Numbered from the stretch's first letter, positions 1 to 22,864 are shown. The stretch: 22,864 nt of DNA from an uncultured Deinococcales bacterium (GCA_964247135.1 CAXTTL010000055.1:1-22864), one strand, 5' to 3'. A program made the numbers and translations. Notes: generated from the sequence alone by a model not told the origin.

Positions 1-280
1 TTTTGACGGCGACCTCTCGGCTTTGATTGAACGCTCCAGCCCTGCCAAAATCGTCAAACTCGAGCTTTCCAAAGTTATTCCTCGAGAAATTCTGGAATCG
101 TATGCACCGGTCAAAAGCATCGATGGTCTGTTCGCGGAACTGCTCGTACCGCGCCTCGAGACGAGCAAAGTCTCTGGGCGGCTTCTGTCCGAACTACCAG
201 TGGCAGACGTGACGATTGAAGACCCAGACATTGAAGCCATCATTGGCGAACTGTTTCAAAGTAATGCGGTGAAACCATGA
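1..280 (+). CDS. ABC transporter ATP-binding protein, C-terminal part (5'-truncated by window)
   Basis: Frame is open from base 2 (FDGDLSALIERS...DVTIEDPDIEAIIGELF), a typical C-terminal tail of ABC-2-type ATPases. Stop overlaps the next ATG (ATGA at 277-280), and two permeases follow. Confidence 0.8.
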   Translation, partial: FDGDLSALIERSSPAKIVKLELSKVIPREILESYAPVKSIDGLFAELLVPRLETSKVSGRLLSELPVADVTIEDPDIEAIIGELFQSNAVKP

Positions 281-1113
281 AACTCAAGACTGGAACCCAA
301 ATGGGTTTATTTGAGAACATGTGGCGCAAATCCAGAGCCATGTTCACGGTGTATTTCGCGCACATGACCATCTACCGCGCCGAGATTTTGATCTGGATGC
401 TCTCGGGCGTCGTGCCCTTAATCATGATGAGTGTCTGGATCGGCAAGGCGAGCGCCAACGGTGGCAGCCTCTCGAGTTTCAGTCCTGCGAGCTTTGCCGC
501 GTACTTCCTGGCGGCTTGGGTCTCGCAACAACTGACCGTGGCTTGGGTCGCGTATGAACTCGATTTTCAAATTCGGCAAGGTGAACTTTCCTCGAGGCTC
601 CTGCGCCCGATGGACCCGTTCTGGGAGCAGTTCTTTCGGCATTTCACCGAACGTTTTGTGCGCGGTCCATTTATTCTGGCGTTCGTGATCGCCGGAACGT
701 TTATTGTCCCAGGCACCCGCCTCAGCCCAGATATTTGGCATGTGCTCGAGTATCTTTTGGTGATTCAAATGGCGTTTTTGATGCGTTTTATGATCGCCTT
801 TTGCATCGGTACGCTGTGCTTCTGGTTTGAAAACGCCACCGCTTTCGACGAATTTTATTACGTACTTTTAACCTTTCTGGCGGGCGGTTTTGCACCGCTC
901 GAGTTTTTCCCGCCCGCACTCCGCGCCGTGGTCGAATGGACACCATTTCCGTACATGGTCTATTACCCCGCCAAAGTCCTCACTGGTGCACTCGAGCCAA
1001 GCCAAACCCTGCGCCTGATCGGTATTTTGCTGGCTTGGATTGTCTTTTTCACCATCTTGCGAGCTGTCCTCTGGCGGGCAGGATTGAAAAAGTACGGCGC
1101 GGTGGGCGCATGA
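277..1113 (+). CDS. ABC-2 family transporter permease (DUF990-like)
   Basis: 278 aa, multiple hydrophobic segments, motifs YRAE, IRQGELSSRLLRP, PLEFFP, PF.YM.Y.P. Confidence 0.85.
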   Translation: MKLKTGTQMGLFENMWRKSRAMFTVYFAHMTIYRAEILIWMLSGVVPLIMMSVWIGKASANGGSLSSFSPASFAAYFLAAWVSQQLTVAWVAYELDFQIRQGELSSRLLRPMDPFWEQFFRHFTERFVRGPFILAFVIAGTFIVPGTRLSPDIWHVLEYLLVIQMAFLMRFMIAFCIGTLCFWFENATAFDEFYYVLLTFLAGGFAPLEFFPPALRAVVEWTPFPYMVYYPAKVLTGALEPSQTLRLIGILLAWIVFFTILRAVLWRAGLKKYGAVGA

Positions 1114-1895
1114 AACGCTACTTTCGCCTGATCTCCATTTTTGCTGGCTCGAGCATTGCCGCTCAACTCGAGTACCGCGCTAATTTTATTGTCAACTTGG
1201 TTGGATCGCTGTTTACGGCTGTCGGCAGCTTGTTTGGTTTGTCGGTGCTGCTCTCAAACGGCTCGAGCCTCGGCGGTTGGAATCAACTCGAGGCGATTGT
1301 GGTGGTTGGCGTGTTCACATTGATTGAAGGCTACATGGGCATGTTCTTGTACCCAAACCTCAATAAAATTGCCGAGGGCGTCCGCACGGGCAGCATGGAT
1401 TTTACGCTCTTAAAACCGCTCGACTCGCAATTTCTGGTCTCGAGCCTCAACGTCAATATTTTGCGCGTCGCCGATCTGTTCATTGGCACGGGTTTAATCG
1501 TTTACGCCAGCCTGAAACTCTCGAGCGTGCAAGCGCCTGGAATTCTGATTGCGGTCTTGCTGATTCTGGCTGGTTTTGCATCCGTCTATTCGATCTGGCT
1601 GATGCTCTGCACCACCGCTTTTTGGTGGGTCGGCGTCGAAAACATCACCGAATTGTTCTGGGGTTTCTTTCGCGCTGGACAATTCCCCGTGACCGCCTTC
1701 CCAGGTTGGGGACGCATTTTGTTTACCTTCGTGATTCCCGTGGCATTCATCACCACCGTTCCCGCCGAAGCTTTGATTGGACGCGGGAAACTCGAGACGG
1801 CGATTGGCGCTTTGGGTGTGGCGTTGTTGTTGCTGGTGGTCTCGAGGTTGTTCTGGAAATTTGCGCTTCGGAATTACACCAGCGCGAGTTCGTGA
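1110..1895 (+). CDS. ABC-2 family transporter permease (DUF990-like), second subunit
   Basis: Start moved to ATG 1110 (MKRYFRL), overlapping the upstream stop (ATGA). Motifs EYRANF, GGW, VRTGSMDFTLLKP.D.QF, FITTVPA, YTSASS. Confidence 0.85.
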   Translation: MKRYFRLISIFAGSSIAAQLEYRANFIVNLVGSLFTAVGSLFGLSVLLSNGSSLGGWNQLEAIVVVGVFTLIEGYMGMFLYPNLNKIAEGVRTGSMDFTLLKPLDSQFLVSSLNVNILRVADLFIGTGLIVYASLKLSSVQAPGILIAVLLILAGFASVYSIWLMLCTTAFWWVGVENITELFWGFFRAGQFPVTAFPGWGRILFTFVIPVAFITTVPAEALIGRGKLETAIGALGVALLLLVVSRLFWKFALRNYTSASS

Positions 1896-1957
1896 CAGCT
1901 TTAACCCTGACGTGCACATCTCATCCTCGAGCCATTAACGCCCTTTAAACTCGAGCC

Positions 1958-2659
1958 ATGAAAACGCTAATGACACTGTTGTTTATGCTTGGCACTGTAT
2001 TCGCAGCCTCTTCGCTCGAGGATGCCAAAACTTTGTTCAACAACGGCAAGTTCTCAGAAGCCGCCAAAGTCGCCCTGACGCTCGAGAGCAGCGCGGGTTA
2101 TGCGTTTGCTGCCCGAAGCTTGTTTGAATATTCCAACCAGCAACCCAAAGAATCCCGTTTGGCAATTCTCGAGCAAGCCGAAAAATACGCTCAAAAAGCC
2201 GTGAAGCTTGACGATAAAAATGCCGACGCGTACTTCGAGGTGGGATCAACGGCTGGGCAACTCGGGGTTTTGCGCGGCGCGGCTTATGCCTTTGCCTCGG
2301 GCGTGGCGGTGACCGTGCGCGAGAGTTTTGAGAAAGCCATCGCGCTCGACCCGAAGCACGTTCAATCCATGATCGCACTTGGGTCATGGCACGCCGAAGT
2401 TGTCTCTCGAGGGGTTGGGTTTTTGTACGGTGGCAACCTCGAGAAGGTGTTTTCGTTATTTGAAACTGCCGTTCAAGTCGCACCAAAATCAGTTACGGTG
2501 CGTTTGGTTTACGCCAAAGCCCTGCTCAAACTGGACGAACAAAAATACCGCAATCAAGCCAAAAACCAACTCGAGCTGGCGGTCAAACTCGAAGCTGAAA
2601 CCTATCTCGAGAAACGCGCTTTGGAAAATGCGAAAGACATGCTGGCTGATTTAAAATGA
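1958..2659 (+). CDS. secreted TPR-repeat protein
   Basis: N-terminal signal peptide (MKTLMTLLFMLGTVFA) and repeated TPR-like units (AQKAVKLDDKNADAY, FEKAIALDPKHVQSM, FETAVQVAPKSVTVR). Confidence 0.75.
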   Translation: MKTLMTLLFMLGTVFAASSLEDAKTLFNNGKFSEAAKVALTLESSAGYAFAARSLFEYSNQQPKESRLAILEQAEKYAQKAVKLDDKNADAYFEVGSTAGQLGVLRGAAYAFASGVAVTVRESFEKAIALDPKHVQSMIALGSWHAEVVSRGVGFLYGGNLEKVFSLFETAVQVAPKSVTVRLVYAKALLKLDEQKYRNQAKNQLELAVKLEAETYLEKRALENAKDMLADLK

Positions 2660-2663
2660 ATCT

Positions 2664-3479
2664 TCAGACTGACATTTCCGAATGTTTGAGTGCTGCAACC
2701 CTGACCAGAACACCCATTTTGTGAGGTTGAGCTTGCACCGTTGGCTTAAATCCAAGCTCGAGGATCGCCTCATCGCAGGCAGGTCCAATGCTGGCAATTC
2801 GGAGCTTCTCGAGCGCGGTTTTGAAGTCCGTGATTAAACCCAAAGTTCTGGCAAAATCGACCGCGTGCCAGAGTTGGACGCCACTCGTTAACAGCAACCA
2901 TTTAAACTTGCCCGCGATCACATCACGCACGGCTCGCTCGAGTGGCGCGGTGTTTTCGGGCAACGCCCAACGGTAGACAGGCAGCAAGTGAACCCTCGCG
3001 CCAAGATTCTGAAGGGCGGTGACAAAGGCTTTGGGCGTATCCTCGCCAAACTCGGCAATAAAAATATGGCGTTGCTCGAGGTTACCGATGTTCTGGTAAT
3101 ACTCGAGCACCTCATGCCAGGTGTGCGGTTCGCTAACGAGCGTTCCAGTCAGATCGTGTTCGCGCAAGACCGCCACGGCTTTGTTGCTGCGCAAGACCAA
3201 ATTCACATTTTTGAGTGCGGCGATGGCTTCGGGCGTCAATTGGCGAAGCAAAAATTTTGTGCCCACACCAGTCATGCAGACCAAATCTGTGATCGTTTGT
3301 TGCTTTAACGCATCACTCAACTCGAGCAATTCCGCATTGTCCTCGAGCGGCACTTCACGGATGCTGGGCGCAACCGTGGCAACCCCGCCCAAACTTTCAA
3401 TCAGGGTTTGCATGTCGCTGGCACGACGGCTCTCGAGGGCGAGAACGGTTGCGCCATTAAAATTTGCGGTGACAGTCAT
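2664..3479 (-). CDS. hemD: uroporphyrinogen-III synthase (HemD family)
   Basis: Motifs LESRRA, APSIREVP, MTGVG, LPVYRW.LP, IASIGP.C; follows nirD by 9 nt on the same strand. Confidence 0.8.
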   Translation of the reverse strand: MTVTANFNGATVLALESRRASDMQTLIESLGGVATVAPSIREVPLEDNAELLELSDALKQQTITDLVCMTGVGTKFLLRQLTPEAIAALKNVNLVLRSNKAVAVLREHDLTGTLVSEPHTWHEVLEYYQNIGNLEQRHIFIAEFGEDTPKAFVTALQNLGARVHLLPVYRWALPENTAPLERAVRDVIAGKFKWLLLTSGVQLWHAVDFARTLGLITDFKTALEKLRIASIGPACDEAILELGFKPTVQAQPHKMGVLVRVAALKHSEMSV

Positions 3480-3488
3480 AAACGCAGT

Positions 3489-3857
3489 TTACTGTACGCC
3501 AACCAAAACCCGCCCCGCCTCGAGTTTCACGTTAAAAACCCGCAAGAACACGCTTGGGTCATCGAAGCTCTGACCCGTCTCGAGGTCAAACGTGTGCTTT
3601 AAAATCGGTGAAGCAATCTTGTAAACATCGCGTCCATCGCGTTTGGTGCTGCCAAAAATCCCCCTGGACATGACGTTGGCTTTGGAAAACGGGTCAAAAT
3701 TGGAAACCGCAAACAACTTGTTCTCCCTGGTGCGAAACACCGCGACTTGGGTGTTTTCGACCAGGGCATTCACGCCGCCAGCCACGGGGATTTGCTCGAG
3801 TTTGCAGATGTCCGTCCAGGTGGTTTCGAGTGGTTTTGCTGCGATTGTGGTGGGCAT
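3489..3857 (-). CDS. nirD: nitrite reductase small subunit (Rieske-like)
   Basis: QVAVFR, N.DPFSKANVMSRG, IASPILKHTFDLETG; RBS AAAGGAG upstream; downstream of nirB. Confidence 0.93.
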   Translation of the reverse strand: MPTTIAAKPLETTWTDICKLEQIPVAGGVNALVENTQVAVFRTRENKLFAVSNFDPFSKANVMSRGIFGSTKRDGRDVYKIASPILKHTFDLETGQSFDDPSVFLRVFNVKLEAGRVLVGVQ

Positions 3858-3889
3858 GTGGACTCCTTTTGGGTTTGGTTGCTTTCTCT

Positions 3890-3933
3890 CCTCTCATCCC
3901 CGACCCTTCTCTCCCAGGAGAGAAGGGAGTTTT
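3890..3933. repeat. palindromic intergenic repeat, CCTCTCATCCCCGACCCTTCTCTCC-N-GGAGAGAAGGG family
   Basis: Hairpin CCCTTCTCTCC-CA-GGAGAGAAGGG; a near-identical reverse-complement copy lies at 14588-14670, interrupted by a 40-nt insert. Confidence 0.85.
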
Positions 3934-3970
3934 ATTGCTTTCTCGAGAAACGGGAATTTGGTGTTTTGAA

Positions 3971-4023
3971 CCCTCTTTCGCGCAGCGAGAGAGGGTGACG
4001 AGCCTCGGCGAGTCGGGTGAGAG
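3971..4023. repeat. second palindromic element of CCCTCT...AGAGGG type, facing the 3890-3933 element
   Basis: Hairpin CCCTCTTTCGC-GCA-GCGAGAGAGGG, then a second imperfect hairpin GACGAGCCTCGGCGAGTC and GGGTGAGAG. Confidence 0.6.
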
Positions 4024-4053
4024 CTTCAGGTGAGATCGTGGACATTTTTTGTA

Positions 4054-6576: not shown

Positions 6577-6616
6577 TTTTGACCTCCTGCCACGCGTAAA
6601 TCGTGACCTTGGATAC

Positions 6617-6645
6617 ATGTTAGTCAAATTTTTGCAAACTGTCAA
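6617..6645 (-). promoter_or_regulatory. sigma70-like promoter for nirB-nirD-hemD
   Basis: Minus strand reads TTGACA (6645-6640), 17-nt spacer, TAACAT (6622-6617), about 40 nt upstream of the nirB ATG. Confidence 0.65.
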
Positions 6646-6883
6646 TCAAAATATGCACAAGTGTCACTTTATGATGTACACCCCAAGTCAAAGCTTTATG
6701 CTTCTTTCAGGCTCGAGATTTATAAAAATTTTCTCGAGAATTTAGATATTTGGTGGCATTCAAGGCTTATTTTTGGTTTTTTATCCAAGTTTTGAGCGAC
6801 TCAAGCGACCAAATCGACTCGAATCCGCCAATTTTGCATTTGCAATTTGTACATCAATTTTTGTACACAATGCAAGTTTTTGC

Positions 6884-6912
6884 TTGACACTTTGCAATTG
6901 TTGTTTTAGATT
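6884..6912 (+). promoter_or_regulatory. sigma70-like promoter for nasA-nrtABD
   Basis: TTGACA (6884-6889), 17-nt spacer, TAGATT (6907-6912). Confidence 0.65.
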
Positions 6913-6986
6913 GACCTCGAGAAGATTTTTGTATACCAAATCACAAAAATTCTAAAAAATACCGTTCAAAACGAAGGAAATTATTC

Positions 6987-7034
6987 ATGACCTCGAGTCT
7001 GCGCACGCCAAAAACCAAGCAAGGTCAAGCGTGA
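6987..7034 (+). CDS. candidate 15-aa leader peptide MTSSLRTPKTKQGQA
   Basis: RBS-like AAGGAAA at 6974-6980; ATG at 6987; TGA stop overlaps the nasA GTG (GTGA). Confidence 0.3.
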   Translation: MTSSLRTPKTKQGQA

Positions 7035-9139
7035 GCGCCGCATTGCTCGAAGTTTCTCCAGTGGTATTGGCACAACGCACATCAACTCGCACGACCTGCC
7101 CTTACTGCGCGGTGCAATGCAGTTTTGACATTGCCGTTGAGACTGGCGCAGCCGTTGCCATGAAACCCACCAAAGATTGCCCCGTGGCGGGTGGTTCGGT
7201 CTGCAAAAAAGGCTTGAATGCGCTCGAGTTGGTCAACCACCCAGAGCGCCTTCTCACCCCACTGGTGCGCAAAAATGGGACCCTTGAGCCTGCAACTTGG
7301 GAAGAAGCCCTGACCAAAGTTGTGGACGGCATGAAATCCGTTCGGGCGGCACACGGCGCCAACGCTTATGGCGTGTTTGGCGGCGGCAGCCTCAGCAACG
7401 AACACGTTTACCTACTTTCAAAATTCGCTCGAGTCGCCATGCAGACCGCCAACATCGATTACAATGGACGCTTTTGCATGAGCACCGCCGCCGCCGCGAT
7501 GCGAGCCGTTTACGGCATGGATCGCGGTTTGCCGTTTCCGCTCGAGAAACTGACCGAAAAAGACTGCATCGTGCTGTGGGGTGCGAACCTCGCCGAAACC
7601 TTGCCGCCCGTTTCCCAGTACATTTTGAAAGCCAGAAAAGCGGGAGCGCCGATCATCGTGATCGACCCGCGCCCAACCCGCACCTCGAGCCTGGCGACGC
7701 ATTATTTGCCGGTCAAACCAGGCGGCGATTTGGCGTTGGCGTTGGCGTTGCTGCACGTGATTGTTGCCGAAGCCCGCGAACACTGGGCGTTCCTCGAGAA
7801 ACGCACGGTCGGCTGGGAATCTGTTATGAAATCTGTAATCGATTGCAGCCCAGAATGGGCGAGCGAAAAGTGTGGACTGGACGCCCAAGTTATTCGTGAT
7901 ACCGCACGTCTGATGGCTCGAGCCGTCAGTGCGCCCGATGCGAGATTCGGCGGTCTGGTGATTCTCTCCGGGCGCGGTCCTGAGCAGCAATCCAAGGGTG
8001 TGGACACGATCAAGGCGATCATCAACCTGGCACTCAGTTTGGGCGGCATTTACGCGCCGTTGACGGGTCAGGGCAACGGTCAGGGCGGGCGCGAGCACGG
8101 TCAGAAAGCCGACCAACTGCCAGGTTACCGCAGCATTCAAGACCCGTTGGCTCGAGGTTATTTTGCCGCACATTGGGGCATCGACGAGGACGACTTGCCC
8201 GGCAAGGGATTGAGCGCCCAGGAGATGCTCGAGGCGTGTGGCGGCAGCGTCAAAGGTTTGTTCGTGATTGGCTCGAACGTCGTGGTCAGCGCCCCCGACG
8301 CAAGCAAACTCGAGGTAAACCTGAAAAAACTCGAGCATCTGGTGGTGGTGGATTTTTTCCTGTCCGAAACCGCCGCACTTGCCGAAGTCGTGCTGCCAGG
8401 GTCGATGTGGCTCGAGACAGACGGCACGATGACCAACCTCGAGGGGCGCGTCTTGCGTCGCCGCAAGGTGCAAGACACCCCAGGCGAAGCTCGAGAAGAC
8501 TGGAAAATCCTTTGCGAAATTGGCGCGAGGCTGGGGCATCCAGAGAAATTCTTGTACCAAAGTGTTGAAGAGATTTTTCAGGATTTTGTGGTTTCAACTC
8601 GAGGTGCGCCAGCCGATTACTCGGGTTTGACCTTCGAGAAAATCGGGACGAAAGGCGTGTTTTGGCCTTGTCCGCACCCGAATCATCCAGGCACGCCAGA
8701 ACCTTTTGCCAAATTTTTCGCCCATCAAGACGGACGGGCGCACTTGGCGGTCGTCGAATACCGTGACAGCGCGGAAATACCGAACCTCGAGTACCCACTT
8801 TTTTTAACCACTGGGCGCGATGTCAACCATTACCAAAGCGGCACGCAAACGCGGCGCAGCAGTTTAAACGCCAAAAGCCCGCACGCCCTGGCGCAAATGC
8901 ACCCCAGCCTCGCATCGCAACACAAACTCGAGAATGGCGCAGCAGTGCAACTCGAGACAAGGCGTGGCGTGGGCGATTTTAAAGTTTTATACGACGAGAA
9001 GATGCGAATAGACACCGTGTTCGTTTCCTTTCATTACGCGGGAACCCAAGCCATCAACCGTTTGACCTCACCCGCCCTTGATCCAACCTCGAGAATGCCC
9101 GAATTTAAGGTTTGTGCCGTAAAAATCGTCGTCCCGTAG
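7031..9139 (+). CDS. nasA: assimilatory nitrate reductase catalytic subunit (Mo-bisPGD)
   Basis: [4Fe-4S] motif TCPYCAVQC...CKKG; NIDYNGRFCMSTA; LTGQGNGQGGRE; LTTGR; C-terminal ALDPTSRMPEFKVCAV. Confidence 0.93.
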   Translation: MSAALLEVSPVVLAQRTSTRTTCPYCAVQCSFDIAVETGAAVAMKPTKDCPVAGGSVCKKGLNALELVNHPERLLTPLVRKNGTLEPATWEEALTKVVDGMKSVRAAHGANAYGVFGGGSLSNEHVYLLSKFARVAMQTANIDYNGRFCMSTAAAAMRAVYGMDRGLPFPLEKLTEKDCIVLWGANLAETLPPVSQYILKARKAGAPIIVIDPRPTRTSSLATHYLPVKPGGDLALALALLHVIVAEAREHWAFLEKRTVGWESVMKSVIDCSPEWASEKCGLDAQVIRDTARLMARAVSAPDARFGGLVILSGRGPEQQSKGVDTIKAIINLALSLGGIYAPLTGQGNGQGGREHGQKADQLPGYRSIQDPLARGYFAAHWGIDEDDLPGKGLSAQEMLEACGGSVKGLFVIGSNVVVSAPDASKLEVNLKKLEHLVVVDFFLSETAALAEVVLPGSMWLETDGTMTNLEGRVLRRRKVQDTPGEAREDWKILCEIGARLGHPEKFLYQSVEEIFQDFVVSTRGAPADYSGLTFEKIGTKGVFWPCPHPNHPGTPEPFAKFFAHQDGRAHLAVVEYRDSAEIPNLEYPLFLTTGRDVNHYQSGTQTRRSSLNAKSPHALAQMHPSLASQHKLENGAAVQLETRRGVGDFKVLYDEKMRIDTVFVSFHYAGTQAINRLTSPALDPTSRMPEFKVCAVKIVVP

Positions 9140-11499: not shown

Positions 11500-12318
11500 A
11501 TGACCTTAAAACTCGAGAAGGCAAACACTGGCATCGAAATCAAAAACCTTTCCAAACACTTTCCTGGCAAGAACGGCGGTTACACCGCGCTCGAGGCGGT
11601 TGATCTCGAGATTGGCGCGGGTGAATTTGTCAGTTTGATCGGGCATTCGGGTTGTGGCAAAAGCACGTTGCTGTCCATGATCGCTGGTCTCGAGAAACCC
11701 AGTACGGGTTTTGTCAAGCTCGAGGGGCAGGAGATCAAAGGTCCTGGTCCAGACCGTGCGGTGGTGTTTCAAAATTATTCGCTCTTGCCGTGGTTGACGG
11801 TTGAATACAACGTGCTCGAGGCGATTGAGGCATCGTGTCCCGAGATGGACAACCTCACGCAGGTCGGACGTTGCGAAGAGTATTTGCGAGCCGTCGGTTT
11901 GTGGCAGCACAGGCACAAACGCCCGCACGAGATTTCGGGCGGCATGAAGCAACGTGTGGCGATTGCCAGGGCGTTTGCGATCAATCCTCGGGTGATGCTG
12001 CTGGACGAGCCGTTTGGGGCGCTGGACGCCCTGACACGCGGTGGTTTGCAGGAGCAACTGAACAAAATGCTCTACGGTGAGTCCAAAGCCGAAACCGTGG
12101 TGATGGTGACGCACGATATCGACGAGGCGATGTATCTGTCTGACCGTATTGTGATTATGAGTAATGGTCCAAAAGCCAGAATTTTTGACGTGATCGACGT
12201 GCCATTTGCCCGTCCTCGCAACCGCACTGAAATGACCAAGACTCTCGAGTATGCCGAGTTGCGCGAGCGTTTGGTCAGGATTTTGACGGTGGATTTGGCG
12301 GTCAAAGAGGCGGCTTGA
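11500..12318 (+). CDS. nrtD: nitrate ABC transporter ATP-binding protein
   Basis: Start moved to ATG 11500 after RBS GGAGGA. Walker A GHSGCGKST, VFQNYSLLPW, ISGGMKQRVAIARA, LLDEPFGALDA; no C-terminal NrtC regulatory domain. Confidence 0.9.
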   Translation: MTLKLEKANTGIEIKNLSKHFPGKNGGYTALEAVDLEIGAGEFVSLIGHSGCGKSTLLSMIAGLEKPSTGFVKLEGQEIKGPGPDRAVVFQNYSLLPWLTVEYNVLEAIEASCPEMDNLTQVGRCEEYLRAVGLWQHRHKRPHEISGGMKQRVAIARAFAINPRVMLLDEPFGALDALTRGGLQEQLNKMLYGESKAETVVMVTHDIDEAMYLSDRIVIMSNGPKARIFDVIDVPFARPRNRTEMTKTLEYAELRERLVRILTVDLAVKEAA

Positions 12319-12320
12319 AT

Positions 12321-12677
12321 TCACTTTAGACTGACTGTGATTGTCGTTGGAGCACTTGAATCACTGCCAATGTATGCGCGAACAGTCACAAACCCAGTTG
12401 CCAATCCTGTGACGATTCCATTTGTGACAGTTGCAATATGTTGATCCTGTGAAATCCAAGTGGTAATCATGCTCATTGAATAGCTTGGCGTTAATGTCAC
12501 ACTTTCACCAACTTTGATTTTGACCTCTTGTGGCATCAGAAAAAAAGGCGGTGGCAAACGAACTCCAGGGCTTAAACAAGACGAACTTAGCAGCACAAAC
12601 CCTAGACATAACCAAAGCAAGTACAACTGTTTAGGAAGTACACCCAAAACGTGGTTTTGAAATTTTTTGGATAACAT
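12321..12677 (-). CDS. small lipoprotein with a bacterial Ig-like (Big_2-like) domain
   Basis: ATG 12677 preceded by GAGAAGGTGG; hydrophobic stretch ending LLSSSC; KVGESVTLT...TW.S.D..IATV.NG.VTG.A.G...V pattern. Confidence 0.6.
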   Translation of the reverse strand: MLSKKFQNHVLGVLPKQLYLLWLCLGFVLLSSSCLSPGVRLPPPFFLMPQEVKIKVGESVTLTPSYSMSMITTWISQDQHIATVTNGIVTGLATGFVTVRAYIGSDSSAPTTITVSLK

Positions 12678-12967
12678 GATCCACCTTCTCAAAATGATTT
12701 TTGAGTTTTCGGTCTAAGGCAAAAAATGAAGCCGTGTTTCGTATTAGACTCTTGCTTTTAAAGCCTGTCAAGCACTGCTCAAATTAAAAAGTCAATAAGA
12801 ACAACACGTCATATTCAACAAATTCTATTCTTTCTTTGGTCGCTCGAGTGTTCCTTCGCTCGAGTGCATTTTTATTGTGCTGCTCGAGATAAACGATGTT
12901 AGGTTTCTCATTCCCCTGGGCTTGTATTCCAGCAAACGAAACTTTGTAGACAAATACGTTTAAGATA

Positions 12968-12980
12968 GACAAAAGTTGTC
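12968..12980. promoter_or_regulatory. candidate operator upstream of the cys operon
   Basis: Palindrome GACAA-AAG-TTGTC within an AT-rich region; TAGACAAA is directly repeated at 12947 and 12966. Confidence 0.3.
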
Positions 12981-13016
12981 AGTTTATAAATCTTGTAAAC
13001 TACATTTAAGGACGCC

Positions 13017-13076
13017 ATGCCCGAGCAACACCACAACACACGAATGTCCACAGTCACACGCTGTTGGGCTTGTTGA
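13017..13076 (+). CDS. candidate Cys-containing leader peptide MPEQHHNTRMSTVTRCWAC
   Basis: RBS AAGGA at 13008-13012; ATG 13017; two TGT codons in the last four codons; upstream of cysC. Confidence 0.4.
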   Translation: MPEQHHNTRMSTVTRCWAC

Positions 13077-13233
13077 CGCTCGAGGTTTTCAAACCATCAA
13101 CCATCACCCAAAAGGCGCAAGGTTTCACGCCCGTTAAAGGAATTTTGATGCCCAGCAAAAAACACCTACGATGTCGAATGCATCAACCCTTCCCGAACTC
13201 AAACCAGCCACAATTTCTTTAAGGAGCAACAAC

Positions 13234-13770
13234 ATGAGCGGAGCAGTCATTTGGTTTACCGGATTATCAGGCGCAGGCAAAACCACCATCGTCAAAGCAC
13301 TCGAACCAGTGCTGCTCGAGGCGGGGCATAAAGTTCAAATCCTCGACGGTGACGCCGTGCGCGAAACACTTTCCAAAGGCTTGGGATTTTCCAGGGAAGA
13401 CCGCGACACCAACATTCGCCGCATTGGATTTGTGGCAAACCTGCTCGCCAAGCACGGCGTGGTGACCCTGGTCAGCGCCATCAGCCCCTACCGCGACACG
13501 CGCCGCGAAGTGCTGGCGGAAGCCGATAAAAGCTTGGAGGTGTTTGTGGATGCCCCACTCGAGACGGTCAGCAGCCGCGATGTGAAGGGCTTGTACAAAA
13601 AAGCCCTCGCAGGCGAAATTCAACATTTCACAGGCGTCAGCGACCCTTACGAAGCCCCAGAAAACCCCGAACTTCACCTTCGCACCGACCTTGAAAGCCT
13701 CGAGCAAAGCGTAGACCGTGTACTCGAGAAACTCGACAGCCTCGGAATTCGAGTCCCAGTCAAAGCATGA
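13234..13770 (+). CDS. cysC: adenylyl-sulfate kinase
   Basis: Start moved to ATG 13234 after [53 protein letters not shown]. Confidence 0.96.
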
Positions 13771-14426
13771 ACACCGTTCTCGAGCCACCTTCAACCAGCC
13801 AAGACCCGCTCGGGTTTATTGGCTGGGCGCTCACGGCTTACCCCGATGTGGTCATGCCGAGCGCGTTTAACCTCAACGGCATCGTGCTGATTGATTTTGC
13901 TGCTCGAGCAGGTTACACGGGAAAAGTGCTTTTTGTCGACACCGATTATCACTTCCGCGAGACGCTGCAAACCCGAGATGTCCTGAAAGCCAAATACCCG
14001 CAACTCGAGTTTGTCACGCTGAATGCAGGCTTACTGCTCGACGATTTGTACTTGACCGACACTGACGCCTGCTGCGCCGCACGCAAAGTTGCGCCACTGC
14101 AAAATTACCTTGCCGAGCACAACCCAACTGCCGTCCTGAACGCCCGCAGCCGTGACCAAGCCAGCACCCGCAGTGAGATTCCCCTGATCGAACACGGCGC
14201 TCGAGTCAAACTCAACCCGCTCGCCAACTGGACAAGGCAAGACCTCGAGGCTTACGCCAGAGAACACGACCTGCCCATCAACCCACTGTACTTCGATGGT
14301 TTTTTAAGCATCGGTTGCGCTCCCTGCACCCGCGCCGTGCGCCCAGGCGAGGACGCTCGAGCGGGACGTTGGGCAGGACAAGGCAAGACCGAATGTGGAC
14401 TTTGGGTTGGGCAAAACGCGATTTGA
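13767..14426 (+). CDS. cysH: (phospho)adenylyl-sulfate reductase, Fe-S type
   Basis: [45 protein letters not shown]. Confidence 0.93.
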
Positions 14427-14512: not shown

Positions 14513-14536
14513 GGGCGCAGCAAGCAGCGCCCCTAC
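14513..14536 (-). repeat. GTAG-type REP-like palindrome
   Basis: Minus strand reads GTAGGGGCGCTGCTTGCTGCGCCC: GTAG followed by an imperfect GC-rich hairpin. Confidence 0.75.
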
Positions 14537-14587
14537 AACAAAACAAAAATCAAAAGACGAACAATGCCACCACACCACATATCAATT

Positions 14588-14670: not shown

Positions 14671-14708
14671 GCAGCGCAACCAGCCTACCCCCGCCACAAA
14701 GGAAACCC

Positions 14709-15878
14709 ATGACCTTGACCTTAGAAACCACAATCCTCGAGAACAGCCTCATCACCCCACTCGGCGGCAAACTGATCAACCGTGTCGAAAACCTTGACCC
14801 GAAAGATTTTGCGCACCTCCCAACCCTCGAGTTGACCGACCGCAATTACGCCGACCTCGAGTTGATCGCCACGGGCGTGTATTCGCCGCTCACAGGTTTT
14901 GTGGGTTCCAAAGACCATGCCAGCATCGTCGAGAATTTACGCCTTGCAAACGGTTTGCCGTGGAGCATTCCGATTACTTTGGGCGTCTCGAGCGAAGCCG
15001 CAAAAACTTTAACGGGTCAAATCCTGCTCAACTACCGCAACGCACCCGTTGGTTTGCTCGAGGTGTCTGAACAGTACACGCCCGACAAGCAAGAAGAGGC
15101 GCTCAAAGTTTACCGCACCACCGACGAAAAGCATCCTGGCGTGGCAGCCTTGCTCGAGCAGGGCGAAGTCAATTTGGCGGGAGACATCACGTTGTTCGAG
15201 GTGTCTCGCGGCGATTATCCCGAGCACCATTACACCCCGCTCGAGACCCGAGAGCAGTTCGCCAAAAAAGGTTGGAAGACCGTGGTGGCATTCCAAACCC
15301 GCAACCCAATTCACCGTGCGCACGAGTATTTGCACAAGGTCGCGCTCGAGACGATTGATGGACTGTTTTTGAATCCGCTGGTTGGCAGCACCAAATCCGA
15401 TGATGTTCCTGCGGCAACTCGAGTGAAAGCCTACGAGGTGCTGCTCGAGGGTTACTACCCAGCAAACCGCGTGTTGTTCGGCGTGTATCCCGCCGCGATG
15501 CGTTACGCCGGACCTCGAGAAGCAATTCTTCACGCGATCTCGAGACGCAATTACGGCTGCACCCATTTTATTGTCGGACGCGACCACGCCGGCGTTGGCA
15601 CATATTACGGCACCTACGACGCCCAAGAAATTTTTAACACGTACAGTAAAGAAGAACTCGGCATTGAAATCATCAAATTCGAGCACACGTTCTACTGCCG
15701 CACCTGCGGTTCGCTCGTCTCGAGCCGCACCTGCCCGCACGACAGCAGCCATCATTTGGTTTTGTCTGGCACGAAAGTCCGCGAGAAACTGACTGCTGGC
15801 GAAGAACTCCCAACCGAATTCACCCGCAAAGAAGTCGCTGAAGTCTTGCGTGCCGCATATCTCGAGGCGAAATCATGA
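14709..15878 (+). CDS. sat: sulfate adenylyltransferase (ATP sulfurylase, Sat type)
   Basis: [53 protein letters not shown], zinc site CRTC...CPH, LSGTKVR. Confidence 0.97.
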
Positions 15879-16618: not shown

Positions 16619-16657
16619 CGACGGGATCAAACCCGTTGTCTCGAGAGGACAGGGTCA

Positions 16658-18247: not shown

Positions 18248-18263
18248 AAACGATTGTATTCTT

Positions 18264-18292
18264 GTAGGGGATGGTCTGAGACCATCCCCTAC
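18264..18292. repeat. GTAG-type REP-like palindrome
   Basis: GTAGGGGATGGTCT-G-AGACCATCCCCTAC with perfect 14-bp arms; identical to 22522-22550. Confidence 0.9.
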
Positions 18293-18311
18293 GGTATTTT
18301 TGGAGAAAACC

Positions 18312-19025
18312 ATGTCTTATTACCCCGTCATGCTCAACCTCAAAAATCGCAAGGTCTTGTTCGTCGGCGGCGGTTGGGAAACCGAGCATAAAGTACGCGG
18401 GCTGCTCGAGGCTGGCGCGAATTTAACCCTGCTCTCAAAGTACCAGCACCCCGAACTTGATGCGCTCGAGAAAGACGGCAAAATCACTTGGCTGCGGCGC
18501 GGTTTTGAGGCGGGCGATCTGGTTGGCGTCTGGTTGGTCATGTCTCATACCAAAGACAAAGCCGACAACGTTGCTATTTATGCCGAAGCCGAAGCTCGAG
18601 GCGTCCTGTGCAACAGCGTGGACGACCCTGAGCGTTGCTCGTTGATTTTGCCCAGCGTCGTGCGCCGTGGCGATTTGATCATTGGCATTTCAACCAGTGG
18701 CACTGCCCCAGCCTTGGGCGTGCGCATCAAACAAAAACTGAACCTCGAGTACGGCGAGGAGTACACGGAATTTCTGGCAATCCTGCGTTCGATGCGCTCG
18801 AGCATCACGGCGGGTTTTGCGAGTTTTGATCTGCGCAAAAAACTTTGGTACGACCTGATGGACTCGAACGCGTTGCAATTGGTGAAAGAGGGGAGACCTG
18901 AAGCCGCTCGAGCCGAAATCAAACGCGGGGTTCTGGCGCAACGTGAAGCCTGCAAACTCGAGCCATGCAAGGGGTGCACACCCGAAAATTGCGCGGTGTT
19001 TTCTGGACTCGAGATGAACTTGTGA
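18312..19025 (+). CDS. sirC: precorrin-2 dehydrogenase / sirohydrochlorin ferrochelatase (SirC/Met8/CysG-N family)
   Basis: Start moved to ATG 18312 (MSYYPVMLNL) after GGAGA. VGGG, NSVDDPERC...PS.VRRG.L.I.IST.G.AP. Confidence 0.88.
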   Translation: MSYYPVMLNLKNRKVLFVGGGWETEHKVRGLLEAGANLTLLSKYQHPELDALEKDGKITWLRRGFEAGDLVGVWLVMSHTKDKADNVAIYAEAEARGVLCNSVDDPERCSLILPSVVRRGDLIIGISTSGTAPALGVRIKQKLNLEYGEEYTEFLAILRSMRSSITAGFASFDLRKKLWYDLMDSNALQLVKEGRPEAARAEIKRGVLAQREACKLEPCKGCTPENCAVFSGLEMNL

Positions 19026-19753
19026 ATGCGGGCAAAGTCTTTATTGTTGGTGCCGGTCCTGGCGACCCCGAACTCCTGACCATCAAAGCCCTCAAAGCCC
19101 TCGAGAATGCCGATGTGGTGCTCTATGACCGTTTGGTTGGCGCGGCGATTCTCGAGTTGATCCCGAAGACTGCCGAAAAAGTTTACGTCGGCAAAAACCA
19201 CGGCGAGCAAGACAGCGTGCAAACCGAAATCATGGTGCTGCTCGAGCGGTACGCCCTGGCAGGCAAAAATGTGGTGCGCTTGAAAGGCGGCGACCCGTTT
19301 GTGTTTGGGCGCGGTGCAGAAGAATGGGCGTATCTGTCCGCGCTGGGCGTGAGTGTGCAAATTGTGCCTGGGATTAGCTCGAGCCTCGCCGTACCCGCCC
19401 TGGCGGGAATTCCCTTAACCTACCGCAACCTCGCTCGAGGGTTTGCGGTGGTGACCGGACATCACTCCGAGGAATCCGCCCCCGAATGGCGTCATTACGC
19501 CCACGTGGAAACGCTGGTGGTTTTGATGGGCGTGGGCGAACGCGCACACATTGCCCAAAATTTGATCGCCCTCGGACGGGACAAACTCGAGCCTTGCGCC
19601 TTTATTGAACGCGGCAGCACCCCCAGAGAACGTGTGGTGATCTCGAGCTTGGGGGCGGTGGCAAACGGTGAAACCAGTGTTGAAGCGCCAGCCGTGTGGG
19701 TGATCGGGCAGGTGGTCGGTGTGCGCGAACAGTTGATCAATTTCAAACCTTAA
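19022..19753 (+). CDS. cobA: uroporphyrinogen-III C-methyltransferase
   Basis: GTG start overlapping the upstream TGA; VGAGPGDPELLT.KA, VLYDRLV, RLKGGDPFVFGRG.EE, VPGISS, GIPLT.R. Confidence 0.95.
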   Translation: MNAGKVFIVGAGPGDPELLTIKALKALENADVVLYDRLVGAAILELIPKTAEKVYVGKNHGEQDSVQTEIMVLLERYALAGKNVVRLKGGDPFVFGRGAEEWAYLSALGVSVQIVPGISSSLAVPALAGIPLTYRNLARGFAVVTGHHSEESAPEWRHYAHVETLVVLMGVGERAHIAQNLIALGRDKLEPCAFIERGSTPRERVVISSLGAVANGETSVEAPAVWVIGQVVGVREQLINFKP

Positions 19754-19798
19754 AAAACTCAGGATTGCTCGAGACAGATACTCGAGCCAGTTTGACCG

Positions 19799-19829
19799 AA
19801 CCACATGATTGTCCATGTGGTTTTGTGTT
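19799..19829 (+). terminator. probable intrinsic terminator of the cys/siroheme operon
   Basis: AACCACATG-ATTGTC-CATGTGGTT hairpin followed by T-rich TTGTGTT, 45 nt after the cobA stop. Confidence 0.5.
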
Positions 19830-19973
19830 GTCGTTGCCCGCAACTTTAATCTTGTGACCAAAATATGACCGAGGCTCGAGTAGCTTGATTGAACAAGAAG
19901 ACAACTTCATTTCCAAAACACTGCCTTTCTTGAAGCGCTCGGTGGAGGGCAGTTTGATCGAAAGGGGTTTACG

Positions 19974-21392
19974 ATGAAAAACCGATGGATACCGTTCAGT
20001 TTGCTGATTATGGCAGCACTCTGGAGTTGTAATTCAGCCGCACCAAACCAGGCAGATACCAACATCGAGGCTGAGAGCCTGTCCTTTCAAGCTTCTGGCG
20101 ACCCAAACTTGCGTCCGTTTCCCAACTCAAGCGGTTGGTCCAGAACCATCTCGCTCGAGGGAAAAATTGACACGAACGGCGCATTTTTTCAAAGCATTGG
20201 CACAAACGGGCGCAGTTGTGTCACCTGTCATCAACCCAGTGAAGGTTGGACGGTCACGCCGACTGGAGTTCAAAGGCGCTTTGCGTTTTCCCTTGGAACA
20301 GACCCGATTTTCAGGCTGGTGGACGGCGCGAACTCACCCAATGCCGATGTCTCGAGCCTGAACGCCCGCCGCAAAGCCTACAGCATGTTGCTCGAGAAGG
20401 GTTTGATTCGGGTTGGTTTGCCGATTCCAGCCAACGCCGAGTTCACGCTCGAGACGGTCGATGACCCTTACGGCTTTGCCAGCAGCCAAGAGCTTTCGTT
20501 GTTTCGTCGTCCGATGCCGACCACCAACCTGAGTTTTCTCAGTGCCGCCATGTGGGACGGACGCGAAAGCATTGTTGATGCCGCCAAACACATTGACCTG
20601 AACGCTTCGCTCTCGCATCAATCCAACTCTGCCACCCGAGGTCACGCCCAAAGTGCCAGGGATTTAACGAACGCCGAACGTCAGAGCATCGTCAATTTCG
20701 AGACCAAGCTGTTCTCGACCCAAGTTTTTGATTTCGAGGCGGGTCGTTTGGATGCCAAGGGCGCAAACGGTGGACCCGAGGCATTGTCTGCGCAAGAGTT
20801 TTTTATTGGCATCAATGACCCGCTCGGATTAAACCCAAGCGGCAAAGCCTTTGACCCAACTGCAATGACCCTGTTCAATCCTTGGCAAAACCTAACAGGA
20901 GACAATGACCTCAATGAGGCGCGGCGTGCGGTGGCTCGAGGGCAGCAGATTTTTAACACCAAACCCATCAATATTGTTGGCGTCAACGGCTTAAACGACA
21001 ACCTGGGCGTGCCGAGCATTCCTGGCACATGTACCACCTGTCACGATTCGCCAAACGTGGGCAACCACTCGGTGATCGCACCGCTCAACATTGGACTGAC
21101 CGATCTCTCGAGACGCACGCCAGACTTGCCGTTGTACACCCTCAAAAACAAGCTCACCCTCGAGACGCGCCAAACCACCGACCCTGGACGCGCCTTGATT
21201 ACCGGCAAGTGGGCGGACATTGGGAAGTTTAAAGGACCGATTTTGCGCAACTTGGCGGCTCGAGCGCCCTACTTTCACAACGGTTCGGCACCAACCCTGC
21301 GCGATGCGGTCAATTTTTACAACCAACGCTTTTCGATAGGTTTGACCGAATCGGAAACCCAAGATTTGGTGGCTTTCCTGAAAACCATTTAA
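19974..21392 (+). CDS. di-heme cytochrome c lipoprotein, bacterial CcP/MauG superfamily
   Basis: Lipoprotein-type signal (ALWSC); two CxxCH motifs (CVTCH, CTTCH); WDGR; DPGR; FK.P.LR.L...APYFHNG...TL...V.FY. Confidence 0.85.
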   Translation: MKNRWIPFSLLIMAALWSCNSAAPNQADTNIEAESLSFQASGDPNLRPFPNSSGWSRTISLEGKIDTNGAFFQSIGTNGRSCVTCHQPSEGWTVTPTGVQRRFAFSLGTDPIFRLVDGANSPNADVSSLNARRKAYSMLLEKGLIRVGLPIPANAEFTLETVDDPYGFASSQELSLFRRPMPTTNLSFLSAAMWDGRESIVDAAKHIDLNASLSHQSNSATRGHAQSARDLTNAERQSIVNFETKLFSTQVFDFEAGRLDAKGANGGPEALSAQEFFIGINDPLGLNPSGKAFDPTAMTLFNPWQNLTGDNDLNEARRAVARGQQIFNTKPINIVGVNGLNDNLGVPSIPGTCTTCHDSPNVGNHSVIAPLNIGLTDLSRRTPDLPLYTLKNKLTLETRQTTDPGRALITGKWADIGKFKGPILRNLAARAPYFHNGSAPTLRDAVNFYNQRFSIGLTESETQDLVAFLKTI

Positions 21393-21402
21393 AGTTGAAC
21401 CG

Positions 21403-21439
21403 CCCAAGCTCGAGGAAGTGAAAGCTCCTCGAGCTTGGG
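21403..21439. terminator. hairpin after the di-heme gene with CTCGAG in both arms
   Basis: CCCAAGCTCGAGGA, 9-nt loop, TCCTCGAGCTTGGG; no clear U-tract. Confidence 0.5.
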
Positions 21440-21476
21440 TGCGTCAGCGCCCAAGTGGAACATGTAAAATCAAAGC

Positions 21477-22508
21477 ATGAACAAATCAAAACCATTGCGC
21501 CTCCTGCAAATTGGCATGGGTGGCTGGGGACGAAGTTGGGCTGAAAGTGTTGTTCCAAAACTCAAAACTGTTAAAGCTGTTGGCTGGGTCGATGCCAAAC
21601 CAGACGCGCTCGAGGCAGCCCAAAATGTCCTGAAATTACCCAAAAAATCGTGTTTTACAAACCTCAAAAACGCGCTCGAGGTGTTGGATGTTGATGCGGT
21701 CTTGATTACGGCATCGGCGGTGGTTCATGCGCCGATTGCAATTGAAGCTTTAAACGCTGGCTTGCACGTGCTGGTCGAAAAACCTTTCGCCCTGACACTC
21801 GAGGATGCGCGAATTGTAAACGAGGTCGCTCGAGTTCAAAAACGAATTGTGATGGTCAGTCAAAATTACCGATTTCAACCCGCCCCACAACTCGTGGCGC
21901 AACTCGTGCGCGATCAAACCTTGGGGCAAGTTGGCGTGGTTCACGTTGATTTTCGCCGTGACAACATGTATCCATCACCCGACATGCCACACTTGCAATG
22001 GGCGCAACCCTTGCTGCTCGACATGGCAATCCATCACTTTGACCTGATGCGATTTATCCTGCAACAAGATGCGCTCGAGCTTTACGCTCACGCTTGGAAT
22101 CCTGTTTGGAGTTTGTACCGCGACCCCGCCAGCGCCACCGTCAACATTGGATTTGAAAACAATACCGTCGTCAACTACCGAGGCAGTTGGGTCAGCCCTG
22201 GCAAAGTTACCCCCTGGGCAGGCGAATGGAAACTCGAGTGCGAACACGGCGAGATCAGTTTTACCAGCCGTGATAATAATGCGCCAGACATGGTGAAAAT
22301 TCGCAAATTCGGCAAGCGAGAACGAAAACTCGAGCTGCCAAACCTCGAGTTTGTCGGACGTGTGGGAAGTTTGAATGCTTTTGCAGAAGCGATTCGCACG
22401 GGAACAGAACCCGCAACTTCGGGGCGGGACAACATCAAGAGCTTGCAACTTTCGCTCGAGGCGATACGTTCAGCGCAAGAAAAACGCGTGATTTCCATCG
22501 AGAAATAA
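21477..22508 (+). CDS. Gfo/Idh/MocA family NAD(P)-dependent oxidoreductase
   Basis: IGMGGWG Rossmann motif, H...A..AL.AG.HVLVEKP, QNYRF.P, LLDMAIHHFD. Confidence 0.92.
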   Translation: MNKSKPLRLLQIGMGGWGRSWAESVVPKLKTVKAVGWVDAKPDALEAAQNVLKLPKKSCFTNLKNALEVLDVDAVLITASAVVHAPIAIEALNAGLHVLVEKPFALTLEDARIVNEVARVQKRIVMVSQNYRFQPAPQLVAQLVRDQTLGQVGVVHVDFRRDNMYPSPDMPHLQWAQPLLLDMAIHHFDLMRFILQQDALELYAHAWNPVWSLYRDPASATVNIGFENNTVVNYRGSWVSPGKVTPWAGEWKLECEHGEISFTSRDNNAPDMVKIRKFGKRERKLELPNLEFVGRVGSLNAFAEAIRTGTEPATSGRDNIKSLQLSLEAIRSAQEKRVISIEK

Positions 22509-22521
22509 ATCGATGAACGGT

Positions 22522-22550
22522 GTAGGGGATGGTCTGAGACCATCCCCTAC
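22522..22550. repeat. GTAG-type REP-like palindrome between convergent genes
   Basis: Identical to 18264-18292. Confidence 0.9.
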
Positions 22551-22566
22551 GAATCATCCCCACAAA

Positions 22567-22864
22567 TTAAATTGCCATCGAAACGTATTTCACGTACAAG
22601 TATTCCTCGAGTCCAAAATGCCCGCCCTCACGACCAAAACCGCTTTGTTTGATGCCGCCAAATGGCGCTTGGGCGGTGCTGGGAATCGGGTCGTTTAAGC
22701 CAATAATGCCGTACTCGAGTTTTTCTGAAACCCGCACGGCTCGAGACAAATCTTTGGTCCAAACGTAAGCTGCCAAGCCAAATGGTGTGTTGTTGGCGGC
22801 GTACAGAAGTTCGGCTTCGGTGTCGAACACGATCACGGGCGCGACGGGTCCAAAAGTCTCCTCG
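22567..22864 (-). CDS. aldehyde dehydrogenase (succinate-semialdehyde dehydrogenase GabD-like), C-terminal part (truncated by window)
   Basis: Frame is open to the window end: EETFGPVAPV...AN.TPFGLAAY..T.D...APFGGIKQSGFGREG...GLEEYL..KY. Confidence 0.88.
   Translation of the reverse strand, partial: EETFGPVAPVIVFDTEAELLYAANNTPFGLAAYVWTKDLSRAVRVSEKLEYGIIGLNDPIPSTAQAPFGGIKQSGFGREGGHFGLEEYLYVKYVSMAI

Follow-up and report, generated by a model that had tools for sequence, protein, structure and literature searches.

Why does a single six-base palindrome, CTCGAG, recur about once every 131 bp along a stretch of bacterial DNA, in the genes of both strands and between them? The stretch, hereafter the window, is a 22,864-nucleotide sequence from an uncultured Deinococcales bacterium (GCA_964247135.1 CAXTTL010000055.1:1-22864), and corresponds to contig C55 of assembly G000 (5,091,702 bp, 386 contigs, 52.65% GC, 84% completeness), referred to below as the source genome. 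A conserved protein affiliates this genome with uncultured 'Deinococcales bacterium' metagenome-assembled genomes (MAGs) of the Deinococcota. An earlier note on the window had likened CTCGAG to the highly iterated palindrome (HIP) of cyanobacteria, HIP1 (GCGATCGC), and had proposed an orphan methyltransferase, a DNA-uptake tag or a nucleoid-protein site behind it. The results presented here leave very little doubt that CTCGAG is a real word, actively maintained at the level of the DNA; what maintains it is a question with several possible answers.

Abundance of CTCGAG in the window and the genome

The window holds exactly 174 copies of CTCGAG (59-22745), the first at position 59 and the last at 22740-22745, as the earlier manual count had suggested. 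The accompanying estimate of a 25-fold excess was too low. Dinucleotide-preserving shuffles of the window (n = 100) contained on average 4.43 copies (standard deviation 2.02, maximum 13), none of them reaching 174, and the excess is therefore ~39-fold. The GC content along the window is 49-56%. The source genome as a whole carries 33,925 copies, or 6.66/kb (~1 per 150 bases), making CTCGAG its commonest hexamer by more than two-fold. The runners-up (GCTCGA, TCGAGC and similar) overlap CTCGAG, the first that is unrelated to it reaches 6,081 copies, and the next palindromic one, TTTAAA, has 3,272, a tenth of the CTCGAG count. All 297 contigs longer than 5 kb contain the word, at 2.6-10.5/kb, and the excess is thus not absent from the rest of the genome, as the earlier note had foreseen for an artefact. 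An order-4 (maximal-order) Markov model could not be used for observed/expected (O/E) ratios, because the 5-mers are themselves dominated by CTCGAG; it flags artefacts such as GTCGAA.

The copies do not belong to a longer repeat, since their flanks are near background in the source genome (<0.1 bit per position). Their only preference is weak and symmetric: position -3 favours A and position +3 favours T (0.40/0.41), and position -1 favours G and position +1 favours C (0.36). No 10-mer context is shared by more than 478 of 33,886 copies. A dispersed element of the repetitive extragenic palindromic (REP) or miniature inverted-repeat transposable element (MITE) type carrying the word was ruled out on the same ground, as the flanks are not common to the copies.

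Coding and non-coding copies

By the window gene model, 102 copies read CTC-GAG, 25 read xCT-CGA-G, 21 read xxC-TCG-AGx, and 26 are non-coding. Genome-wide, the longest non-overlapping open reading frames (ORFs) of at least 150 aa (3,674 ORFs, 4.04 Mb) served as a proxy for genes, which differs from a trained gene caller in that some strands and starts will be wrong. In these ORFs, 16,146 copies lie in the CTC-GAG phase, 4,105 in xCT-CGA-G and 6,093 in xxC-TCG-AGx, against 2,889, 288 and 529 expected from shuffling synonymous codons within genes (O/E 5.6, 14.3 and 11.5). This null is conservative, because it retains codon frequencies that are inflated by CTCGAG itself. When dicodons are preserved, the two out-of-frame phases are still 1.8-1.9-fold above expectation (2,254 and 3,261 copies expected). 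The density is 6.5/kb in coding DNA, 7.2/kb outside ORFs and 9.0/kb in the 30-250-bp gaps between ORFs (47% GC), and internal intergenic gaps of this size hold 1,396 copies where base composition predicts 27 (51-fold). With all phases above their nulls and an intergenic excess besides, the enrichment therefore neither disappears under dicodon control nor is confined to the Leu-Glu frame, and the claim that it is independent of frame and strand and extends into non-coding DNA is borne out.

It follows from the frame, gap and dicodon counts that a by-product of codon, dicodon or amino-acid usage, with Leu-Glu habitually written as CTC-GAG, is a highly improbable source of the excess. The 61% of coding copies in the CTC-GAG frame (16,146/26,344) would agree with it. 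However, the reverse dicodon GAG-CTC does not occur once in the source genome, intergenic density is above coding density, and CTC is not favoured outside the word: it accounts for 24% of Leu codons, with 44% of its occurrences inside CTCGAG; the corresponding shares are 44% for GAG, 29% for TCG and 31% for CGA. The Leu-Glu excess is also missing in Deinococcus and in outgroups, as detailed next.

Effect on encoded proteins

Leu-Glu is the most over-represented dipeptide of the source genome (O/E 2.39, n = 20,965; Glu-Leu 1.02), and 77% of its occurrences are written CTCGAG. In loci of related MAGs the corresponding O/E is 2.35, compared with 1.53 in Calidithermus/Meiothermus, 0.98 in Deinococcus and 1.07 in Chloroflexota, used as the outgroup; these groups were set by record title, with the motif densities already known. 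The ATP sulfurylase gene of the window (14709-15878, plus strand, assigned by Pfam) has 14 copies of the word (12/kb) and was aligned with 36 orthologues. Conserved Leu-Glu pairs are written CTCGAG in the family of the source genome and in Thermaceae (in 8/8 Thermaceae at nt 147), and in 0/14 Deinococcus. Other copies fall on residues that differ from all outgroups, where LA or YA has become LE (nt 444), AE has become LE (nt 531) and VSP has become VSS (nt 1010). In the alignment, some copies represent ancestral Leu-Glu pairs, and at others the amino acids were replaced in a way that created CTCGAG. The force on CTCGAG is strong enough to change protein sequences and to double the frequency of a dipeptide.

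Conservation, decay and absence from islands

Conservation of the sites among orthologues, a check proposed with the original observation, was assessed by aligning 281 kb of a congener (G005) to the source genome at 86.5% identity. Of 1,988 sites, 1,558 (78%) are identical in the congener, compared with 47% of phase-matched other hexamers; outside ORFs, 267/350 (76%) are kept against 44.5%. When four further congeners were aligned to the window, 50-100% of CTCGAG sites were kept against 34-49%, depending on class. The sites also turn over, with 430 of the source genome missing in G005 and 279 of G005 missing in the source genome. Among 81 site positions aligned in at least four of five genomes across the window, 39 are shared by every aligned genome, and a further 11 are gains and 17 losses confined to one genome.

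Single-step differences between the source genome and G005 are nearly all transitions and spread over the three symmetric positions (108/109/84). No C-to-T excess was seen at the CpG cytosine of CTCGAG in this alignment, and the evenness over positions thus gives no sign of a hypermutable methylated cytosine. In the source genome the one-step neighbours of CTCGAG do not pile up at any position; transition neighbours are 2- to 3.8-fold above expectation, transversion neighbours at or below it, and we read the former as decay products of the abundant word. The log bias of word over neighbour between genes is 2.6-5.0 per neighbour type (mean 3.9), an equilibrium estimate that assumes composition-based expectations. 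Recognition of an inner core, either TCGA (TaqI-like) or CYCGRG (AvaI-like), was rejected, as deviants are even over positions and CCCGGG is rare (124 copies).

The word is missing from 18 gaps of at least 1.5 kb in the source genome, most of them low-GC islands (27-40% GC) with sharp borders. Those at C13:~12170-14420, C70:14265-16155, C20:7860-9575, C135:1928-3271 and C1:102790-104270 have 26-36% GC. Their products include a defence-like pair (an AAA_21 ATPase with DUF4276), an O-antigen ligase, an AAA_16 protein and several proteins that match no Pfam family; we take the islands to be imports. One methylase gene likewise has 0 CTCGAG in 774 bp. The word itself, at all six of its positions and in any context, is thus subject to a directional force on the DNA; this force is balanced by transition decay, and it acts on resident rather than newly imported DNA.

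Distribution among the Deinococcota

The family of the source genome, f1, comprises 19 genomes in five genera, most of them incomplete and one closed in a single contig (G011). All 19, including the 18 besides the source genome, are rich in CTCGAG (4.3-6.8/kb, densities that rest on rounded genome sizes). The other four families of the order have 0.03-0.27/kb (f3) or 0.6-2.9/kb (f2, f4 and f5). Among named loci, the density is 2.9-3.7/kb in Calidithermus, 1.2-3.7/kb in Meiothermus and 0-0.2/kb in Deinococcus. The excess in the Calidithermus and Meiothermus loci goes beyond the synonymous null and reaches outside ORFs, and Deinococcus loci avoid the word (O/E 0.2). A survey of the octamer GCTCGAGC across the phylum (201 genomes) shows it to be 4- to 100-fold more frequent than its reversed control CGAGCTCG in many f2, f4 and f5 genera, near parity with the control in the large genus g7, and strongly depleted in genus g9 (30 genomes of 1.8-2.5 Mb; 2-56 copies vs 14-210 of the control). 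We infer that g7 is Deinococcus, g9 Thermus and g13 Meiothermus. Three g9 genomes have ~1 CTCGAG/kb despite avoiding the 8-bp form. The phylum-wide check suggested in the earlier note therefore yields a graded series, from the family (4-7/kb) through Meiothermus and Calidithermus (~1-4/kb) and the presumed Thermus (near codon expectation) to Deinococcus, and this gradient makes phylogenetic profiling for the responsible gene possible.

An artefact of assembly, binning or sequencing has practically no chance of accounting for the excess and is already refuted, because the word is abundant in 19/19 family assemblies including the single-contig genome, in named MAGs that come from several projects and in the genomes of Calidithermus and Meiothermus isolates, and its sites are orthologously conserved.

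A literature search found no report of CTCGAG over-representation in Deinococcota, with a coverage that lacked most subscription journals and supplements. The CTCGAG case belongs with iterated words of the HIP and uptake-sequence type; we found no prior description of it, and do not claim that it is unpublished.

Among the matches listed in the IMG/VR database, four viral contigs (L353, L256, L312 and L265; 58-69% GC) have 4-6 CTCGAG/kb and no GAGCTC, and this two-word signature, rich in CTCGAG and poor in GAGCTC, is common to them and family f1. A tblastx comparison of the motif-rich viral contigs among those matches with the source genome detected no protein similarity.

A possible self-DNA tag

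With a probability of roughly 40%, CTCGAG may be a HIP- or uptake-like tag of self DNA that belongs to an uptake or recombination pathway, a reading built on analogy with known iterated words. The tag would be read by a two-fold symmetric DNA-binding component of a DNA-uptake or homologous-recombination pathway, such that fragments or alleles bearing CTCGAG would be taken up or recombined preferentially. The word would then spread by molecular drive, possibly with weak selection, a route regarded as the one by which uptake sequences build up and lately put forward for HIP1 as well, and ordinary transition mutations erode its copies; newly imported genes would start without CTCGAG and gain copies over time. 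The HIP-like character claimed for the word holds in every descriptive respect that could be tested, and of the mechanisms offered with it the uptake or self-tag alternative fits the anatomy at least as well as the methylase. The lack of a conserved methylase and of a 5-methylcytosine signature leads us to rank the self-tag first, methylation second, repair bias third and a protein site fourth.

Several points weigh against a self-tag. A 6-bp palindrome holds little information and has no orientation, unlike the 9-12-bp uptake sequences of other bacteria. Deinococcus is naturally transformable, yet avoids CTCGAG in the loci measured here. ComEC is present in 18/19 family genomes, but this is weak support because the protein is near-universal in bacteria. 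The spacing of the word shows short-range repulsion only, with no clear regularity and with over-dispersion at the 5-kb scale. Stems extended by at least 3 bp occur in only 11% of close non-coding pairs of the source genome (2.6% of coding pairs), from which it follows that hairpins use CTCGAG but do not explain it. Finally, the data on conservation and turnover cannot separate selection, uptake drive and biased repair.

Methylation and the search for a methyltransferase

An unlikely but better-supported alternative than those that follow is coupling to methylation, as in Elhai's model of HIP1, where an orphan CTCGAG methyltransferase and methyl-directed or very-short-patch-like repair would convert near-matches into the word. 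CTCGAG is a classical type II site, and systems of the XhoI family occur in sister families. Most other palindromic hexamers are nearly absent from the source genome, which implies that the hyper-abundant one must be safe from restriction. In the available parts of the sources, an orphan CTCGAG methyltransferase is described in Nocardia (PMC4752239) and each cyanobacterial HIP goes with its methyltransferase (PMC4390886). The equal transitions at symmetric positions described above, with no 5-methylcytosine hotspot, speak against such a model, as do one-step deviants that are not concentrated at the outer positions and leave no inner core such as TCGA.

Gene content weighs against the model as well. 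The source genome encodes two C5 methylases, four to five of PF01555, one HsdM-like, two MmeI-like and one SNF2-fused; the last three kinds were not considered further, being unlikely to recognise a palindrome of 6 bp. Seven methylase genes were used as queries, six of them across 41 relatives. All seven are patchy, and each of the five that could plausibly be type II enzymes has close orthologues in just 2-4 of the other family genomes. A scan of the 19 family genomes with PF01555 found no member in three, including the closed G011. Five family genomes of at least 91% completeness (one of them closed) were also scanned with PF02384, PF02086, PF00145 and PF07669, and the hits compared all-vs-all. 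No methyltransferase orthogroup in these families or PF01555 was common to all five, a result to be read in light of mostly incomplete family assemblies, specificities that cannot be read from sequence and the possibility that unrelated methylases share a specificity. The C5 family PF00145 has 0 members in G008 (91% complete), and the N6 enzymes of ~500 aa carry HsdM_N and are thus type I. A Vsr gene was not found in the source genome (84% complete).

Enzymes of the XhoI type gave a similar picture when searched for as the earlier note had recommended. The nuclease (PF04555) occurs in 0/19 family genomes, and the same search found it in 3/22 genomes of sister families, one copy being broken. 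Two of these loci, L363 (G021:C1:73699-77256) and L362 (G033:C11), pair it with a 340-aa PF01555 methylase; in the third, L364 (G031:C1:1094188-1097598), a 452-aa Eco57I/TaqI_C methylase accompanies a nuclease interrupted by stop codons. The XhoI-adjacent methylases have no orthologue in the family, where their best matches either show 25-33% identity across most of the length or cover short conserved motifs only. The proposed orphan methyltransferase is therefore unsupported by gene content, and is weakened rather than refuted. The suggestion that the responsible gene lies outside the window agrees with our data, in that the window holds no candidate and its genes, by Pfam, serve nitrate and sulfate assimilation. 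The sister genomes with an XhoI-family nuclease still hold 1.7-2.0 CTCGAG/kb.

Only one methylase is shared between genera of the family at 73-93% identity (7/19 genomes). It adjoins a SacI-like nuclease and was rejected as the driver of CTCGAG, since it fits the absence of GAGCTC instead. In the source genome (G000:C320:1064-2985, L225) this D12-class methylase gene (2155-2985, minus strand) lies directly upstream of a match to the SacI nuclease (PF09566, E 8e-7), and the pair probably constitutes a SacI-type system. GAGCTC (the site of SacI, and CTCGAG read backwards) has 0 copies in the source genome and 3-25 in most family genomes. Other palindromes of the source genome are avoided to an extreme degree, against ~1,240 copies expected of an average hexamer: GGGCCC (1), CGGCCG (3), AGGCCT (4), CGTACG (5), GGATCC (7), CCGCGG (11), CAGCTG (15), GCATGC (17), ACTAGT (18), AGATCT (25) and CGATCG (47). 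Avoidance on this scale implies long exposure to many restriction systems.

Biased repair and chromosomal proteins

The excess might also be a functionless by-product of biased repair or gene conversion, in which a nuclease or mismatch enzyme resolves heteroduplexes towards CTCGAG. We consider this slightly less plausible than methylation, as no such enzyme is known or was found, and as the peak behind stop codons and the hairpins described below suggest that the cell uses some copies. Otherwise much of the anatomy is as a conversion bias would have it: near-equal density in coding (6.5/kb) and non-coding DNA (7.2-9.0/kb), a metagene profile that is flat at 6-7/kb across genes with a slight rise 20-60 bp before starts, a similar bias at every position (ln(motif:neighbour) 2.6-5.0), copies tolerated at a cost to proteins, and a gradual build-up in resident DNA with absence from imports. 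Apart from the use of some copies, the data do not separate this reading from drive by uptake.

It is improbable that an abundant chromosomal protein (involved in nucleoid organisation, condensation or replication) binds CTCGAG and that each copy of the word is kept by weak selection on this account. The word saturates the genome and is a clade-specific trait, its flanks are symmetric, and copies lie very close together less often than expected (ratio 0.16 at 4-10 bp, 0.56 at 10-20 bp), all of which would suit a bound protein. However, the spectrum of pair distances in the source genome shows no convincing periodicity beyond the codon period, there is no gene-relative pattern except the post-stop peak, no candidate protein was found, and ~34,000 weakly selected sites would be a heavy load.

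Relation to known systems

HIP1 and the alternate cyanobacterial HIPs are the closest parallel to CTCGAG. They too are short, GC-rich, clade-specific palindromes, hyper-abundant genome-wide both in every reading frame and outside coding DNA, and HIP1 sites, like those of CTCGAG, are conserved between relatives beyond background. In the available text of the respective sources, HIP1 is reported to be conserved beyond expectation (PMC5861425), linked to methylases (PMC4390886) and recently linked to natural transformation (PMC13756078; bioRxiv 10.1101/2024.09.10.611283). CTCGAG differs in its length (6 vs 8 bp), its density (~6.7/kb vs roughly 1/kb for HIPs, as given in the available part of PMC4390886), its occurrence in another phylum and its very strong dipeptide distortion. 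Moreover, the cyanobacterial HIPs go with a cognate methyltransferase, and for CTCGAG no conserved one was found among the family genomes.

The DNA uptake sequences (DUS) of Neisseriaceae and the uptake signal sequences (USS) of Pasteurellaceae share other traits with CTCGAG, namely family-wide over-representation, a doubling (approximately) of the encoded peptides, absence from recently acquired genes and possibly paired copies as hairpins behind genes. According to the available parts of the sources, uptake sequences approximately double their encoded peptides and are missing from genes without homologues (PMC2817400), and can accumulate by molecular drive (PMC2817400; PMC2954483 as cited in PMC6561018). 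Such a drive, accepted there, needs no benefit per site. In contrast to the 6-bp palindrome, DUS and USS are 9-12 bp long, non-palindromic and present at ~1/kb, and they have a demonstrated uptake bias as well as, in Neisseria, a demonstrated receptor, ComP.

Three further systems involve the same hexamer or a related process. An orphan methyltransferase of Nocardiaceae recognizes CTCGAG outside restriction (Blow et al. 2016, PMC4752239), the one functional use of this kind that our literature search turned up; in the available part of that paper the methyltransferase is identified, the word clusters near dnaA, and saturation of the genome is not reported. Restriction-modification systems of the XhoI/PaeR7I type have the same recognition word, and nucleases of the XhoI family occur in the same order, but restriction targets are normally avoided, as in Deinococcus, and CTCGAG is enriched 25- to 50-fold in a family where the nuclease is found in 0/19 genomes. 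In E. coli, the methylation-linked repair bias of Dcm and Vsr raises the frequency of CCWGG modestly and acts on one position only. The likeness is a site raised by repair bias; the difference is that all six positions of CTCGAG are driven and that no Vsr was found in the source genome.

HIP1 and the USS/DUS are among the clearest cases of a DNA-level process overriding protein coding, and HIP1 has been unexplained for some thirty years. CTCGAG is denser than any HIP in the available parts of the literature compared, and in an unrelated phylum. It is conceivable, though on balance doubtful, that the word accumulates without a dedicated methyltransferase, with an uptake, recombination or repair reader driving ~34,000 copies per genome and rewriting thousands of codons, which would make it a second, independent origin of a HIP. 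Because cultured Meiothermus and Calidithermus carry CTCGAG at intermediate levels, this second origin would be within experimental reach, and work in these genera could settle how such words arise. On the practical side, these genomes have in CTCGAG a strong compositional marker, useful in binning and in recognising imported DNA, and cloning with XhoI would cut their DNA into pieces of ~150 bp.

Features of the locus and other observations

The out-of-frame and non-coding copies that were originally singled out in the window hold against its ORFs. The xxC-TCG-AGx phase is found at 471 in the ORF 277-1113 and at 1148 and 1262 in the ORF 936-1895. The gene of a molybdopterin oxidoreductase (assimilatory nitrate reductase-like by Pfam; 7031-9139, plus strand) has a further such copy at 7684 and xCT-CGA-G copies at 7428, 7917 and 8151. 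The non-coding sites fall between long ORFs, at 6646-7030, 12693-13170, 19754-19973 and 21393-21476. The first of these is an AT-rich divergent intergenic region with three copies (6712, 6733 and 6916; 6712-6921).

Genome-wide, the density of CTCGAG peaks after stop codons: the first 20 bp have 13.4/kb, the next two 20-bp bins 10.3 and 8.8/kb. A palindrome that is present twice on one strand can base-pair with its own second copy, and three such pairs are predicted to form hairpins in the window, all on the plus strand. A perfect 14-bp inverted repeat (21403-21439; arms 21403-21416 and 21426-21439, one copy per arm) begins 11 nt past the stop of the ORF 19974-21392 and has a folding energy of -34.3 kcal/mol (z -7.0). 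Just after the ORF 18965-19753, two copies (19767-19787) form a 7-bp stem with a 7-nt loop (z -4.7), with a second hairpin and T-run following it. The third pair (12841-12876) lies in an 11-bp direct repeat (12840-12850 and 12856-12866) and gives a 9-bp stem followed by a T-rich run (-17.3 kcal/mol, z -4.5). This terminator- or attenuator-like structure (12834-12882) is located ~290 bp upstream of the sulfate-assimilation genes and far from any upstream plus-strand gene, and could represent an attenuator or a small-RNA terminus.

The 66 tRNA genes predicted by aragorn contain 10 copies of CTCGAG where 34 are expected, distributed over 8 genes. The tRNA genes of the source genome lie partly in tight clusters (C157 and C14). 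A MITE/REP-like repeat with a core of ~40 bp at G000:C1:31590-31780 (L104 11590-11780) has 65 BLAST hits on 54 contigs of the source genome and well over 100 hits in G001-G005; the copy at this position is without CTCGAG, and the hits have only 2.6 CTCGAG/kb. A second repeat, of 51 bp, is found at L104 4079-4129.

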